Source: an uncultured Chroococcidiopsis sp. (GTDB lineage Bacteria > Cyanobacteriota > Cyanobacteriia > Cyanobacteriales > Chroococcidiopsidaceae). From it: a stretch of 64,000 bases of DNA. Within the stretch, counting starts at the first letter, position 1. Each line of letters opens with the position of its first letter. Shown one piece after another: positions 25,606-45,588 of the stretch. The stretch spans positions 1 through 64,000 of the forward strand of contig CAXTYC010000024.1 of NCBI GenBank assembly GCA_964248365.1, in the 5' to 3' direction. Both the position numbers and the translations under genes were made by a program. The notes below the pieces were generated by a model. The model did not search any database and was not told where the DNA came from. It worked only from the letters and a program-made list of their open reading frames with translations.

Positions 25606-25687
25606 TGCGGATGAAAGGACTTGAACCTTCACTCCTCTCGGAACTAGAACCTAAATCTAGCGCGTCTGCCAATTCCGCCACATCCGC
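25606..25687 (-). tRNA. trnL: tRNA-Leu (anticodon TAG)
   Basis: GCGGATGTGGCGGAATTGGCAGACGCG-CTAGA TTTAGGT TCTAG, long variable arm, GGTTCAAGTCC...CATCCGCA; CCA not encoded. Confidence 0.96.
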
Positions 25688-39723: not shown

Positions 39724-40496
39724 TAGTTATGGTGATGATGGTAGCGGCTGAAGCTTGGACCATAGGTAGCTAGAAGGTTTTGGGGAGAAAGAGCAGTATC
39801 AGGTGTGCCAGTGCAAACAACTGTTTGGTTGAGGCACAGGACGCGATCGCAATGGCGGCTAACCATGTCAACATCATGGGAAATCTGCAACACTGTCCAA
39901 CCTTCCTCGCTTTTAAGTTGATGCAGCAAGGCATAAAAATCAGCTGCACCTTGCATATCTACACCTGCAAATGCTTCATCTAATACCAATAGTTGACGAG
40001 GCATTACCAAGCAGTAAGCTAGTAACACTCGCTTTAATTCGCCTCCGCTGAGGCTACCGACTGCTTGATGTCTAAGATGGTAGGCATTCACTCGCTCTAA
40101 TGCCAGTGCGATCGCCGCTTGCTTGTTTCTTACCCCTCGAAGCTCCACATATCCCAGCCCCACCAACTCGCCCACACAGATAGGAAAGCTGCGGTCAAAG
40201 ATAAAATTTTGCGGCATATAGCCTATTTGATGGGATAAATCCCCCAACCGTTTGATTGGGCGACCAAAAATTTCAATTCTCCCTGATGTGTGTGGTATTA
40301 TACCTAAAAGGGCTTGCACCAGGGTACTTTTCCCCGCTCCATTTGGACCTACTACAGCTGTATCTGTCCCTGGTAACAATTCAAACGAAACATCTCGGAC
40401 AGCTAAATATTTGTTGTGATAAACTGTTAAACCCTCTACCTTCAGGATCGGGTATTGGCTGTTAAATAATTCATTTGGCATCACGACTACCGACAA
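39723..40496 (-). CDS. znuC: Zn/Mn ABC transporter ATPase
   Basis: GPNGAGKST, LSGGELKR and a C-terminal His tract. Confidence 0.9.
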   Translation of the reverse strand: MSVVVMPNELFNSQYPILKVEGLTVYHNKYLAVRDVSFELLPGTDTAVVGPNGAGKSTLVQALLGIIPHTSGRIEIFGRPIKRLGDLSHQIGYMPQNFIFDRSFPICVGELVGLGYVELRGVRNKQAAIALALERVNAYHLRHQAVGSLSGGELKRVLLAYCLVMPRQLLVLDEAFAGVDMQGAADFYALLHQLKSEEGWTVLQISHDVDMVSRHCDRVLCLNQTVVCTGTPDTALSPQNLLATYGPSFSRYHHHHN

Positions 40497-41482
40497 GCTG
40501 ATTCTAAAGTTTGCAGATTGGCTTTCATCGCCGTGAAGTAATGCTGCGGATCGGTTGACCCTTTTTCCAAGGAATCTAAAGGACGTAGGGTTAAATTCAA
40601 ATCTTGGGAAAGACTTTTAAGCAACTTATTATCCACTCCTGGTTCTCCAAATAATGCCTTGACTTTGTACTGTTTCACAGCCGCTATAGCTCTTTGCACG
40701 TCTTGGGGTGACAATTGATCTTCTGGAATTTCTACTACGGCAACTTGCTTGAGTTGATAGCGTTTAGCTAGGTAAGGATAAGCGTCATGGAAGGTAACGA
40801 AAGTGCAGTTAGGATACTGTTGTAGCCTCTGCTTAAACTCTTTGTCTAAAGCCTGCAACTGCTGGATATAAGCCGTTGCATTCGCCTGGTAAGTTGCTTT
40901 GTTTTTCCCATCGGCTGCTATCAAGCCGTCACGAATATTTGCCACCTGCTGTTTTGCTAGAAGTGGATCAAGCCAAACGTGAGGATTACCAGCTTTATGT
41001 TCGTGTTGTGCCTCTAAAGCAGTGTTTACAACGGGTGAAATTGCCTCTAAAGCTTGAATTCCCGAACTTGCATCAATTTGTTTGAGTTGAGAATTTCCGG
41101 CATTTTTGACAGTATCATCGAGAAATTCCTCCAACCCTAAGCCATTTTTAACTAATACATTAGCCGTTGCGATCGCACTCACATTTGCTGGTGTCGCTTG
41201 GTATTCATGTACTTCTGTTCCTGGTGGCACTAAAATTTCTACCTTCGCGGATTCTCCCGCCACTGCTTTGGTAAACCAATACATCGGCAAAAAAGTAGTT
41301 ACTACTTCGAGTTGCTTTGATGGTGATGCTGTTTCCCCCGCCCCAGATGTAGGCGACGAATTTGATGAATTGCAGCCAGTGGTAGCTGACAACACTAGTA
41401 TTGGCAGTAGGGCTATCCTCTGCCTACCCGCTTGATGCCAACTCTTGCGGCTCAAATTTCTCCTTTGATTGGCGATCGCCAT
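40487..41482 (-). CDS. znuA: Zn/Mn ABC transporter substrate-binding lipoprotein
   Basis: Lipobox TTGC, PGTEVHEY, NPHVWLDP and TFHDAYPY motifs. Confidence 0.9.
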   Translation of the reverse strand: MAIANQRRNLSRKSWHQAGRQRIALLPILVLSATTGCNSSNSSPTSGAGETASPSKQLEVVTTFLPMYWFTKAVAGESAKVEILVPPGTEVHEYQATPANVSAIATANVLVKNGLGLEEFLDDTVKNAGNSQLKQIDASSGIQALEAISPVVNTALEAQHEHKAGNPHVWLDPLLAKQQVANIRDGLIAADGKNKATYQANATAYIQQLQALDKEFKQRLQQYPNCTFVTFHDAYPYLAKRYQLKQVAVVEIPEDQLSPQDVQRAIAAVKQYKVKALFGEPGVDNKLLKSLSQDLNLTLRPLDSLEKGSTDPQHYFTAMKANLQTLESACR

Positions 41483-41508
41483 CGCTGTTTTTTCACCCAC
41501 TCACCCCA

Positions 41509-41523
41509 TGATAATGAATATCA
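41509..41523. promoter_or_regulatory. Zur/Fur-type 7-1-7 box upstream of znuA
   Basis: TGATAATGAATATCA has one mismatch to TGATAATnATTATCA. Confidence 0.7.
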
Positions 41524-41567
41524 TTTTATCTAAAAATCAAATATATTCTTGCTTTATTTTTCTCTCC

Positions 41568-41823
41568 TACGGGGGATGTTTAATCATAAAATTTGAGGAA
41601 TAGAAGTTTACTTGTAAAGCTCGCCTGTACGAGTAGGGACTGGTTGTTTGAATCAGTTACCAGTTACCAGTTACCAACTACCAACTACCAGTTCTATTAC
41701 TGACATTCAATTATCTTGTGAGTTAAGGTATTGTAGCGAACAATGTTTATTAGTACATTAGTACTATAATACGCCAAAAGCTTCGCTACTTTTACCTATC
41801 AAGTATGTCCGAGCAGCCCCGTA
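41568..41823 (+). ncRNA. Candidate retron msr-msd region
   Basis: Short hairpins at 41620-41633 and 41639-41657; long hairpin AGGTA..GTAGCGAA / TTCGCTAC..TACCT at 41726-41797, directly upstream of the RT. Confidence 0.45.
41752..41770 (+). promoter_or_regulatory. Cyanobacterial LexA-box match overlapping a TATAAT -10 element
   Basis: AGTACATTAGTACT (41752-41765) fits RGTACNNNDGTWCB; TATAAT at 41765-41770. Confidence 0.5.
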
Positions 41824-43208
41824 CCCGCCAGGAACTTTACGATCGCATTCGTTCCACTTCCAAACAAGAATTTATCCTTGAAGAAATGATTCGCTTGGGA
41901 TTTTGGTCTGCACAAGGTCAAATTCCAGAAGATCCAGCAGATGAAATTCGGCGGATAGGAGAACTGCGACGAGAACTAGAGCAACTACGGCAGGAGAATG
42001 CCCGTCTTTTCAACGAAAAAGCCCTACGCAGGCAGTTACTAAAGCAACGACTAGCCGAATTGCGGCATAAGCAGCAGGAAACTAAGGAACGAAGAGAACG
42101 GGAAAGACTTGAAAGAGCAGCAGCTTGGCAACAAAGAAAACAGCAACAAATCCTTTATCTCGGTGAAAACGTCTCAGGTGGACTCAATCATACCAATTGC
42201 AATCAGGAGCGTTTAAATAGCTATGGCTTACCAGTTTTAGCCACAGCTGAACAAATTGCCACTGCGATGGGAATTAGTGTGGGACAACTGAGATTTTTGG
42301 CTTTTTCTCGCCAGACTTCTACCATAACCCACTATATTCGCTTCAAAATTCCCAAAAAAACAGGTGGAGAGCGGTTAATCTCAGCCCCCATGCCGCGCTT
42401 AAAAAATGCACAACATTGGATACTTGTCAATATATTAGAAAAACTGGAACTGCACGATGCGGCACATGGTTTTCGACGCGATCGCTCTATCGTTAGCAAT
42501 GCTCAACCCCATGTAGGGCGTGACATAATCATCAACTTTGACCTCAAAGACTTCTTTCCCTCAATTTCCTATCAACGAGTTAAAGGGCTATTCCAATCCT
42601 TTGGCTACACTGAAGCAGCAGCCACAATTTTCGCCTTGCTATGTACCCAACCAGAAATCGAAGAAGTAGAACTAGACGGCAAAACCTACTATGTAGCATT
42701 GACACAACGACATTTACCCCAAGGTTCCCCAGCTTCACCAGCCATTACCAACCTACTATGTCGCCGCCTAGATCGACGCTTAACTCTTATGGCTGAATCA
42801 CTAGGCTTTATTTATACCCGCTATGCAGACGACCTGACATTTTCTGCTTCTGGTGACAGCCTGCGACATATCTGCAATATCCTCAGACGCACCGAGTCAA
42901 TTGTGGCTCACGAAGGATTTACCATCAACGAACAAAAGACGAGAATCTTACGCAAAAATCGGCAACAAGAAGTCACAGGGATTGTAGTCAACACACATCC
43001 CAACATATCCAAAGAAACTCTTCATAGCTTCCGCGCCACCCTATATCAAATTGAAAAAGACGGAATAGAAGGTAAACGCTGGGGAAACTCTACCGATGTG
43101 ATAGCTGCAATTGCAGGCTTTGCTAATTTTGTTGCTATGGTTAATCCTGAAAAAGGAGCGAAGTTGCAACAGCAAGTCAAATTAATTAAAGACAAATACA
43201 GAACGTAG
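41805..43208 (+). CDS. Retron-type reverse transcriptase (Mx162-like, long charged N-terminal extension)
   Basis: IPKKTGGER, AAHGF, NAQPH (NAxxH), DLKDFF, LPQGSPASP, YADD and VTG motifs. Confidence 0.93.
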   Translation: MSEQPRTRQELYDRIRSTSKQEFILEEMIRLGFWSAQGQIPEDPADEIRRIGELRRELEQLRQENARLFNEKALRRQLLKQRLAELRHKQQETKERRERERLERAAAWQQRKQQQILYLGENVSGGLNHTNCNQERLNSYGLPVLATAEQIATAMGISVGQLRFLAFSRQTSTITHYIRFKIPKKTGGERLISAPMPRLKNAQHWILVNILEKLELHDAAHGFRRDRSIVSNAQPHVGRDIIINFDLKDFFPSISYQRVKGLFQSFGYTEAAATIFALLCTQPEIEEVELDGKTYYVALTQRHLPQGSPASPAITNLLCRRLDRRLTLMAESLGFIYTRYADDLTFSASGDSLRHICNILRRTESIVAHEGFTINEQKTRILRKNRQQEVTGIVVNTHPNISKETLHSFRATLYQIEKDGIEGKRWGNSTDVIAAIAGFANFVAMVNPEKGAKLQQQVKLIKDKYRT

Positions 43209-43249
43209 TGCTTTGCCTCGCTCTCAAGCTGAGCCTGGGAGCAAGAATA

Positions 43250-43943
43250 TCTCATCATCGTCAGCACTCTTTCAGCCCATTCGAGCAGTTCTGAATTTAT
43301 CCCTTGAGGTTGGCGATCAAATTGAATACCATGCTCTGCCAACACGGTTAGAGCGTGGGACGATATGGAAGTACCCTTAAACTTTTGACACTCCCACCGA
43401 GCCTTCGGGGGATTCTTCATTCAACAAGTCCACTTAGTTTAAACCCCTTGCGGTATCTAAACCAGAGGTGGTTCTCTCCTGAAGCGTTAACTTTCGGTCT
43501 GCCCGACCGTAGTTGCATTACTGCAAAACTTTGCTTGATTTAGCTACAAAGCTAAGTACTGTTCGTTTGGTGTGGGTGAATCTTTTACCTACTTTCAGGA
43601 GCTACTATTGTAGCAACCGGAACAACAAAGTAGAACCAGCTAGATTCAATTACCAAGGTGCAGCGCGTTAACCGTTTAGGTTACTAGGTTTTTTGAGAGG
43701 TTAATTACCTTGCCTGTGTGCCAAAATATACAACATAATCGGGTAGGAACGCAAGCCCCTGCCCGATATTCATCCCCCGATCCTTCGGGGTCTTCTATCG
43801 GTTGAAAGATAAAGTCCAGCCGATCGCACCTGAATTTCACCGCAGCTCTGGTCTAACCTATTTTCTTCAATCTTGTGCTGAAATAGCGCCTCTGCCATTG
43901 GGTTACGACAAGTGTTACCAGTACAAACAAATAGAACTCGCAT
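43250..43943 (-). pseudogene. Low-molecular-weight protein Tyr/Arg phosphatase, split by an IS derivative and 3'-truncated
   Basis: 43943-43809 encodes MRVLFVCTGNTCRNPMAEALF...VRSAGLY. After the insert it continues KFKGTSISSHALTVLAEHGI...LLEWAERVLTM. No DP loop follows. Confidence 0.85.
43385..43808 (-). mobile_element. Non-autonomous IS200/IS605 derivative lacking tnpA and tnpB, with an omegaRNA-like right end
   Basis: Inserted 3' of TTTAT with no target duplication; subterminal hairpins at both ends; right end terminates in TCAA; TnpB-tail-like ACGGTCGGGCAGACCGAAAGTTAACGCT segment. Confidence 0.8.
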
Positions 43944-43978
43944 TTAGCAATTGGTAATTGGTGATTGGTAATTGGTAG

Positions 43979-45090
43979 TTGGGAAAAGGGAAGCTGATCA
44001 TGTGGTCATTGTCAGTACCACAGCTAGGAGCAACTTTGGCAGCAACCTTGGTAGGCTACGAAGCTGGGTTGTTAGATCAAAGAATATTAAACAGCGTCAT
44101 TGTTTTATTGTTGGTAACGGCAACTTTAGGACTCCTATTTACTAGTCGCGTAGCCCCAAGTTTGGTCGTAGCGGCAAATAATCTTGAGCCAGAGACAACG
44201 CCGCCTGATTGGAATACCCAGCCAGCAGACAGCCCATTTAAGGTAGTAGTTCCAGTCTATAAACCCCAAGACACAGCAGTATTTGATTGAAATGGCAGCT
44301 TTATTCGCACGTCAGGCGGGGGGGGCAGGTAGTACCATTAGCTGATCGCCAAAGCAACTGCCCATATGGATGCGCCCCAGTTAGAAGCTGCTTTCCAACA
44401 AGGAGAGTTACTTCTAGACAATGCCACTGCTATTAGCCAACAACAAGGCATGGAGGCTGAACCTGTATTGCGAATTGACGATGCGATCCCACAGGGAATT
44501 TGTCGAGCAAGTCGAGAGCAAAAAGCAAGTTTAATTGTTCTAGGCTGGGGTCAACGTACTGGCTTACGCGCTCGCTTGTTTGGTAATGTAATTGATAGCG
44601 TTTTGGCTGAGGCTCATTGTCCTGTTGCGGTGTCACGCTTAGTGAGTTCCCCCACCCAAATGCGGTGCATTTTAGTACCATTGGAAAATCTCACTTCCCA
44701 AGCACTGCGTAAAGTCAAGTTTGCCCATAGAATAGCCGCTGCAACTGGAGCATCAGTTACAGTCTTACACATCTGCCCTCCCAATAGCTTGGATGCGATC
44801 GCAACTGGCGCTACTATTTGCTAAATTATCTTTGCCAAATCAATTAGAAATTCAAATCCTTCCTCACGACAATATATTTCAAGCAATTCTAGAGGTAGCC
44901 GAAGGATGTGATGAACGTGGTCTTACGTTCTGTTCGCCCTCGCACCAGTACAAGTAGCGCTTTAGTAGTTGGCGGTGTGACAACCCAACGTGTGAGTGCA
45001 CTTACCTGTTCCCTCGTCATGCTAGGAGAACCGCAACCTGTTGCCACAGCAGCTTTTGCCCTGACTCGCCCCCTAAAAACGTTGCTTTGA
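43979..45090 (+). pseudogene. Cation:proton antiporter with USP domains, C-terminal remnant
   Basis: MWSLSVPQLGATLAATLVGY and LFGNVIDSVLAEAHCPV in broken frames; most TM segments are missing. Confidence 0.8.
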
Positions 45091-45588
45091 GCAACCGATT
45101 GTCCTAAGTACAAGGACATAAAAAAATGGCTCTTTTGTGCAAAAGGCGAAAGGATTGTGCGGTAAGAGTTATCTAGTTTGACAAGCGCCATTTTTTTGCC
45201 TTTCTCCTCCTTAGTAAGTAGGTGGACATAATTAAACGTAAAATGCTTAATTCTAAGAAATAAAAAGGTAAAGTACTTACCTTCTGCCTTCTACCTTCTA
45301 CCTTCTACCTTCTACTTAAAATCTTTGCTAAATCTTTAAGGTGGTGTGTATTTACTAAATTTTGAGCGGTAAAAGATACTTTGGGAATAATTGTTTGTTA
45401 AATTTTTTAAATTAGGGAATAATCAGTTAAGCAGTTAGTTGAATAAACAACAAATGCGCCTTGTCAGGCGTTGCTAATATAACAACTGCCTTTCCGTGCT
45501 GTAGGGCAAGATTCTCGCAAACGCATACGCACTTATTGAGATGCATTGCCAACCCTAATTGAAACACTTGTAACAAACTAGAAAATCT

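Follow-up and report, generated by a model that had tools for sequence, protein, structure and literature searches.

The reverse transcriptase (RT) gene in the window, by which we mean the whole 64,000-nucleotide stretch of contig CAXTYC010000024.1 from an uncultured Chroococcidiopsis sp. that was analysed, probably belongs to a working type XIII retron whose parts are split between two places in the genome. Judged from the sequences, the RT would act in trans with a noncoding RNA (ncRNA) and two partner proteins encoded on another contig, C3, of the same genome (G000). Type XIII retrons are the oldest known kind of retron and are still unexplained.

Table 1. Features of the RT locus in the window and of the C3 locus
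Feature	Position	Strand	Evidence or remark
Type XIII (clade 10) retron RT, 467 aa	41805..43208	+	Intact ORF; PADLOC profile; charged N-terminal extension
znuA	40487-41500	divergent from RT	Pfam ZnuA
Presumed Zur-type palindrome, one mismatch	41509..41523		Just upstream of divergent znuA
Candidate msr/msd of the first-pass annotation	41568..41823	+	Rejected as retron ncRNA
Heptamer tandem repeat tract	41654..41693	+	One of 212 similar tracts in the genome
LexA box RGTACNNNDGTWCB, exact match AGTACATTAGTACT, predicted operator	41752..41765	+	53 nt before RT start
TATAAT, predicted -10 of the RT's own promoter	41765..41770	+	Overlaps LexA box; no sigma-70 -35 found
Noncoding dispersed element, 430 nt	43383..43813		Copy on C53 (76% identity); also in several relatives
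Usp-domain membrane protein pseudogene (bystander)	43970..45087	+	5'-truncated, two frameshifts
Type XIII ncRNA	G000:C3:47624-47371	-	Family covariance model; outside the window
SWIM gene	C3:49263-47626	-	PADLOC SWIM_XIII 821 bits; frame open
WGR/HEAT gene	C3:52534-49364	-	PADLOC WGR_XIII 1301 bits; Pfam WGR and HEAT_2; frame open

The reverse transcriptase and its neighbours

The RT carries the motifs NAQPH (residues 232 to 236), YADD (340 to 343) and VTG (390 to 392), and 27 K/R and 21 D/E residues lie within residues 1 to 115. The intact 467-aa frame with NAxxH, YADD, VTG and a long charged N-terminal extension, as listed by the first-pass annotation, was thus found in full. The resemblance to Mx162 was likewise upheld, the PADLOC profile RT_XIII scoring 665.8 bits over residues 1 to 465 against 332.5 bits for the runner-up model; the Ec107-like model reached 210 bits (RT_XIII, 666 bits). 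Orthologues from Nannocystis were 59 to 61% identical to the window RT and had the same PADLOC model, and the closest solved structures in a structure comparison were those of the retron RTs Ec86 and Ec67. By profile score, the enzyme is a clade 10, type XIII retron RT of the Mx162/Ne144 kind.

GC and GC3 contents were host-like. Four intact-length RT matches were present in the genome, and the window RT was the only retron-type enzyme among them; the remaining three scored best as group II intron-like RTs, and ten shorter fragments were found besides. None of the four intact-length matches is therefore another retron RT that could be the real counterpart of the ncRNA on C3.

The neighbours of the RT are znuA and a pseudogene, as first described, together with a 430-nt noncoding element. 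A second copy of this element lies at G000:C53:17567-18003, and we take its ends to resemble those of the IS200/IS605 family. The pseudogene matched residues 333 to 705 of a 714-aa Usp-domain membrane protein of G444, which by sequence reading may be a cation antiporter, the family match covering the Usp part alone. The palindrome at 41509-41523, which we take to be of the Zur type, appears to belong to znuA and not to the RT. Weaker matches to a Zur-type palindrome were present upstream of znuA in G444. In the closest congener (locus L170, G444:C68:7658-10473) a different gene lies upstream of znuA, so that the position of the RT beside znuA is not shared with it. A gathering-threshold Rfam scan of the window gave a tRNA gene at 25606-25687 as the sole match.

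Template RNA and partner genes on contig C3

According to the available part of Mestre et al. (PMC7736814), type XIII comprises RT clade 10 with Mx162, Mx65, Sa163 and Ne144 (Retron-Mxa1, Mxa2, Sau1 and Nex2, respectively), and its linked partners are a SWIM protein (cluster 114) and, encoded upstream of SWIM, a protein with WGR and HEAT/ARM parts (cluster 216). The genome was searched with the parts recovered from related loci, and all three were placed on C3 (Table 1). The claim that the RT has no effector gene thus held within the window but not for the genome, where both partner genes and the ncRNA were found. A search of the genome for accessory genes had been proposed and gave the WGR/HEAT and SWIM genes in intact form; of the two options that had been left for the RT, selection without an effector or with partners in trans, the second is the one that agrees with the C3 locus.

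The three C3 parts and the RT were each present in one copy. The ncRNA was the only match to the family model in the genome (229 bits), and its predicted fold (z score -8.83) is closed by pairing of the ends and contains an msr hairpin as well as a long msd stem. In an alignment of 37 copies of the family, 31 of 51 pairs showed two-sided changes. A G within CTTGC or CTAGC was invariant in all 37 rows (position 47593 on C3), and in 16 of these rows the motif was preceded by a second priming candidate, CAGC, as in Mx162. The msd span between the conserved anchors was 131 to 136 nt in 35 of the 37 copies and 133 to 136 nt in 24 of 26, and the sequence of the msd stem varied while the span length stayed nearly fixed. 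A 28-nt palindromic repeat (C3:47398-47371), with 25 similar ones in the genome, breaks into the outer arm on the 3' side of the C3 ncRNA; despite this repeat, the arms pair in the predicted fold. The housekeeping neighbours of the C3 locus include recF, and an RNase H gene is present in the genome.

The RT is at least 84 kb away from the C3 parts, on a separate contig of a draft assembly of 102 contigs. Both loci are situated deep inside their contigs, 36.7 kb (RT) and 47.4 kb (C3) from the nearest ends. A clade 10 RT, an msr-msd ncRNA, a SWIM protein and a WGR/HEAT protein are thus all encoded, with the partners in trans; a single cassette in which ncRNA and partners are contiguous with the RT was not found, the distance being at least 84 kb. 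This non-contiguity argues against a canonical cassette and not against working like a retron.

LexA boxes and proposed separate transcription of the RT

The sequence RGTACNNNDGTWCB is the cyanobacterial LexA box, and cyanobacterial LexA controls non-SOS genes too (PMC3091678, available part). An exact box within 100 nt upstream, as for the RT, was present for only 5 of 2757 ORF regions, and 54 regions had a box with at most one mismatch. The lexA gene is present in the genome and its own promoter holds an exact match; recA has only two-mismatch sites. At the WGR/HEAT start on C3 a one-mismatch box was found at position -45. The other exact boxes are on contigs C7, C15, C17 and C25, and the boxed genes were an integrase-like gene, lexA, a 1069-aa and a 255-aa gene and an ABC-transporter-like gene, all assigned by eye except lexA.

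The position of the box ahead of the RT was conserved in eight related loci, and TATAAT was kept in related loci too. The palindrome at the RT promoter was conserved in sequence, with no compensatory changes, a pattern as would be expected of a protein site. In the linked sister loci L012 and L026 an exact box lies between ncRNA and RT; the RT therefore seems to have moved with its promoter. A box with at most one mismatch preceded 3 of the 23 certainly split RTs and 5 of the 43 linked ones, and it was found upstream of 4 of the 49 WGR/HEAT starts. The box is confined to one group of related loci, and a LexA link that would extend to cyanobacterial type XIII retrons in general is not supported. 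In this lineage, the RT and the C3 operon are possibly under shared control by LexA and DNA damage. A scan for two-hexamer sigma-70 promoters gave no match at either the RT or the C3 locus, and a look-up of RNA sequencing runs listed none.

The closing stem was followed by a terminal run of at least five T in 29 of the 37 ncRNAs, and in linked loci the ncRNA and the RT were 10 to 6240 nt apart, with passenger genes, among them RNase III and NYN, often lying in the gap. These two features suggest separate transcription of the RT in linked loci as well.

Recurrence of the split in other genomes

Related loci were taken from the best 80 of 145 GTDB loci with the RT. The SWIM gene was within the flank in 40 of the 80, the WGR/HEAT gene in 38 and a conserved 250-nt RNA in 44, and the usual order of linked loci was WGR/HEAT-SWIM-ncRNA-RT. 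The genomes of 39 loci that had no SWIM gene in the fetched flank were searched further. All 39 had an RT without stops, 38 had a SWIM gene (one frameshifted, two cut by contig ends) and 37 had the ncRNA. Many of these genomes are fragmented drafts, and just 16 of the 39 were counted as separated by at least 20 kb; adding G000, G449 and five more from the phylum sample described below brings the certain splits to 23. On single replicons, RT and partners lay 0.64 Mb (G449), 0.67 Mb (G280), 1.19 Mb (G029), 1.56 Mb (G014) and 3.4 Mb (G068) apart. The system was scattered in three pieces in some genomes (G005, G037), and in G280 the WGR/HEAT gene was apart from SWIM.

We also searched 401 genomes sampled evenly across the cyanobacterial phylum, with two to four candidates scored per genome and with kin among them that are not independent. 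RT matches at E 1e-100 were obtained in 16 genomes, 11 with full-length orthologues, one of which (linked) carried a stop, and five with other forms. SWIM was found in 13 genomes. In the 11 with a full-length RT its identity was at least 70%, and in the other two, which gave no RT match, it was 31%. The ncRNA was present in all 11 genomes with a full-length RT; blastn detected ten of these copies and the model the remaining one. The RT was unlinked from its partners in 6 of these 11. In the family sample, RT and SWIM occurred in the same 3 of 28 genomes, and none of six congeners had SWIM.

The RT gave dN/dS values of 0.07 to 0.15 in 10 split-split pairs versus 0.06 to 0.22 in 11 linked pairs. 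The earlier suggestion that the RT is under selection thus agrees with a purifying signal in the split copies. The RT of the window itself is without a close relative; its dN/dS of 0.10 was obtained from distant pairs only (dS above 1.2) and was saturated against G449. Since this value rests on distant pairs, a recent loss of function in this genome is possible. Tree distances of RT and SWIM correlated with r 0.77 for 41 rows labelled split, which include uncertain drafts, and r 0.88 for 37 linked rows (0 of 999 permutations), a congruence that is also expected under plain vertical inheritance. Among 26 ncRNAs located behind the SWIM genes of genomes whose RT locus lacks SWIM, 96.9% of the pair cells were kept and none of 500 shuffles was as high, in an alignment fitted to the model, which leans toward kept pairing.

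At least nine changes between linked and split states were counted on a tree with linked outgroups from which uncertain rows were left out, and a single split clade was rejected (p-AU 4e-6, with 21 of the 43 linked rows in this test). The split thus appears to have arisen repeatedly, with the split copies under purifying selection. In G449, which belongs to the same family and is also split, the RT is the sister of the window RT; because the split is common to both, it is probably old in this lineage.

Several variants of the locus were seen. Five of the 16 RT-positive phylum genomes were without this SWIM gene. The two distant SWIM genes (31%; G192:C1:573335-574930 and G268:C1:1065751-1067334) are in genomes of 1.7 to 1.8 Mb with no RT match at E 1e-100. 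Four congeners (L163 to L166, from G440, G443, G441 and G445) have RTs of about 350 aa without the N-terminal extension, one of them with a stop; the L163 RT scored 498 bits with RT_XIII. SWIM was not found in the four genomes, nor an ncRNA match in the three loci checked, and these enzymes appear to be truly partnerless clade-10-like RTs. Related RT ORFs of 584 to 618 aa with a different N-terminus, TPR-looking by eye, were found in G330 (L150:3892-6010), G059 (L151:3969-6033), G096 and G124. In L150 and L151 a type XIII ncRNA homologue lies downstream of the RT, and SWIM was not found at E 1e-30 in any of the four genomes.

Two diverged ncRNA copies per RT occurred in 7 of 44 loci (L039, L045, L054, L073, L074, L075 and L079). 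In G029 (C1:1854169-1863960) the order is WGR/HEAT-ncRNA-WGR/HEAT-SWIM-ncRNA, with the RT at the 1.19 Mb given above. RNase III was present in 14 of the 80 loci, and in L002, L003, L005, L009, L020, L028, L035 and L079 RNase III and NYN-domain genes lie between ncRNA and RT; these genes may be either passengers or RNA-processing partners. An orthologous VWA gene lies directly 3' of the RT in the linked loci L012 (11704-13542) and L026 (12236-14071) and in the split G449 (L171:8409-12434), and beyond it all three have a second WGR-like gene of 474 aa. Because these genes are common to G449 and the two linked loci, the G449 block seems to have moved with the RT. The VWA gene was rejected as a required part, since this genome has no orthologue of it (best match 29%).

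Predicted fold of the SWIM protein

The C3 protein has the SWIM motif C516-x-C518-x12-C531-x-H533 (CxCx12CxH) and the conserved acidic residues D139, D147, E152, D185 and E224. In the available part of PMC7736814, cluster 114 is described with a winged helix, CxCx12CxH and an acidic motif read as a transposase-like DEDE. A sequence search against the PDB gave nothing below E 0.4. A model from a shallow alignment (pLDDT 57) had weak clamp matches and was superseded by a model predicted from 79 sequences, with pLDDT 86 and pTM 0.85. The latter matched PCNA with a Foldseek E value of 1.2e-8, Z 16.1 and an rmsd of 2.8 to 2.9 A, over about 220 of 245 to 248 residues (model residues 33 to 365). The Z scores with other clamps were 14.7 for Rad9-Hus1-Rad1, 11 to 13 for beta clamps and 11.5 for UL44.

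The SWIM protein is thus predicted to hold a two-domain PCNA-like clamp fold, in common with PCNA, the 9-1-1 complex, beta clamps and herpesvirus processivity factors, where the centre of type XIII SWIM proteins had been described as transposase-like. It differs from these clamps in its 7 to 11% identity, a long helical hairpin inserted in domain 1 and extra N-terminal strands, and also in its appendages, a winged helix (residues 382 to 442 of the model) and the SWIM finger. Only one of the five predicted clamp helices is clearly basic. The acidic residues may serve in catalysis or metal binding, as they are conserved and lie in the first clamp domain of the model. In E. coli, RT-DNA is produced by clade 10 RTs even when accessory genes are absent (bioRxiv 2024.01.25.577267, available part). 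The clamp-fold protein should therefore not be needed for synthesis, which counts against the clamp being an essential processivity factor.

Proposed mechanism and alternative explanations

The split system is proposed to have arisen and to work as follows. From the ancestral order WGR/HEAT-SWIM-ncRNA-RT, rearrangements between ncRNA and RT would be tolerated, because the ncRNA ends in a stem and T run and, in the linked sisters, a promoter of its own already precedes the RT. The RT likely finds the C3 ncRNA in trans and likely copies the long hairpin of this RNA into msDNA. Its region Y would bind the msr hairpin; such recognition is established for Ec86 and Ec73, and engineered retron RTs have been expressed in trans (PMC6868368, available part). 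Priming at the invariant G of CTTGC would yield a hairpin msDNA of about 135 to 145 nt, LexA would co-regulate the RT and C3 loci in this lineage, and the WGR/HEAT scaffold would hold the complex of msDNA and RT together with the SWIM protein and its clamp fold. The most likely job, which we assign tentatively, is that of an accessory defence system sensing abnormal DNA ends or foreign replication in DNA stress.

The chief alternative to defence, considered unlikely, is a role linked to DNA repair. The parts would then still work in trans, as a domesticated accessory of host DNA repair or replication. The predicted clamp fold, the winged helix and the WGR domain, a predicted DNA-end binder, would suit such a role, as would the LexA boxes at both loci, the host-like GC and GC3, the housekeeping neighbours recF and znuA, and the vertical inheritance of type XIII reported in the available part of Mestre et al. 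(PMC7736814). The distribution is very patchy, however: the system occurs in 11 of the 401 phylum genomes and in 3 of the 28 from the family, and none of six congeners has SWIM. Most characterised retrons are anti-phage systems (PMC8632793, available part).

It is improbable that the split disabled the retron here and left the RT as a recent orphan whose decay is pending. A mobile-like remnant and a pseudogene lie next to the gene, the ncRNA has a repeat inserted in its outer arm, and the RT has no close relative from which a recent dN/dS could be taken. Against this, each of the four parts has retained its open frame or its pairing, purifying selection is seen in split pairs elsewhere, and the split is common to G449 with its sister RT and is thus probably old.

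A stand-alone retron, in which 41568-41823 serves as the template for a short msDNA and no effector is needed, is very improbable. The 291-nt region upstream of the RT can fold with closing ends (z -2.05), and 4 of 200 shuffles folded equally well. The hairpins first reported at 41620-41633, 41639-41657 and 41726-41797 can be drawn but are weak, with predicted energies of -2.6, -5.5 and -20.3 kcal/mol. The heptamer tract is present as described and is a common genomic repeat and not a retron part. TACGGGG and CCCCGTA, which had been put forward as a1/a2, form a perfect 7-bp inverted repeat, but its 3' arm lies inside codons 5 to 7 of the RT and its 5' arm is part of a local hairpin as well (41561-41576). 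Such a repeat is at chance level: of 500 random 350-nt segments of the genome, 322 contained one or more with arms at least 150 nt apart.

The covariation that was to be sought upstream of orthologues was checked in nine related promoters and not found. The helices of GTAGCGAA/TTCGCTAC were 44% and 66% paired, and no measure, that of the whole structure included, exceeded the shuffles (93 to 266 of 500 as high). The hairpins were not conserved, an outcome that the first-pass annotation had itself named as refuting its reading. With filters off, the type XIII ncRNA model reached at most 9.2 bits in 40500-45500 of the window (C3, 229 bits). The compact msr/msd upstream of the RT and the short msDNA expected from it are therefore not supported, and the region was rejected as retron ncRNA, the cognate ncRNA and the partners being on C3. 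The long hairpin at 41726-41797 is better read as the RT promoter, with the LexA box forming its inner part.

That the parts are really adjacent and were separated by the draft assembly, with its 102 contigs and the loci on different ones, is the least probable reading of all, as both loci lie deep in contigs among ordinary genes and the same split is seen on the single replicons of G014, G029, G068, G280 and G449.

Relation to known retrons

The split system that we favour shares with type XIII retrons the RT family, the N-terminal extension, the SWIM and WGR/HEAT partners and the msr-msd architecture, and the ncRNA before the RT of Nannocystis exedens, an enzyme 61% identical to the window RT, aligns base by base with the one on C3. 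Unlike in type XIII cassettes, the RT is distant from ncRNA and partners and has its own promoter with a LexA box. The stand-alone retrons of clade 2 (Ec107-like) and clade 11 also have an RT without an adjacent effector, but they keep the ncRNA with the RT and have no partners (PMC7736814, available part); here the ncRNA is distant and partners exist, so that an (msr-msd)-RT cassette of this kind was not recovered.

Near precedents for the split are the RT-less msr-msd repeats of Ne160 and engineered expression in trans. Retron-Nex1 (Ne160) has msr-msd without an RT within a kilobase, and a distant RT was suggested for it (PMC6868368, available part). The Ne160 copies are described as duplicated repeats, whereas here one intact ncRNA accompanies a partner operon and one intact RT lies elsewhere. 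That some ncRNAs are far from their operon was raised as speculation in bioRxiv 2024.01.25.577267 (available part). In the accessible parts of the literature, neither a natural split of type XIII retrons nor their LexA sites nor the clamp fold were found to be reported, the corresponding parts of PMC13712802, PMC8632793 and bioRxiv 2024.01.25.577267 describing none of these; PMC12548924 gave no match for these features. A phage-defence test of a type XIII retron was likewise not found in the accessible parts. Published surveys looked for neighbours within 30 kb (Mestre et al., PMC7736814) or for the ncRNA within 500 bp in an experimental census (available parts). Since both the definition and the detection of retrons presuppose a contiguous cassette, split systems would be scored as orphan RTs or missed.

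The broadest reading, which we consider rather doubtful as a whole, is that in many cyanobacteria the parts of type XIII retrons (RT, msr-msd RNA, WGR/HEAT scaffold and PCNA-like clamp protein) have become separate chromosomal genes whose products assemble in trans, with members under LexA in this lineage and a clamp-fold protein sitting on an msDNA hairpin of fixed length, and that they would link msDNA to DNA damage or replication stress. If the parts do work in trans, many clade 10 RTs that appear solitary would have templates and partners that can be found, and the function of the Mx162 family could be tested through DNA-damage regulation, the clamp-fold partner and the hairpin of nearly fixed length.
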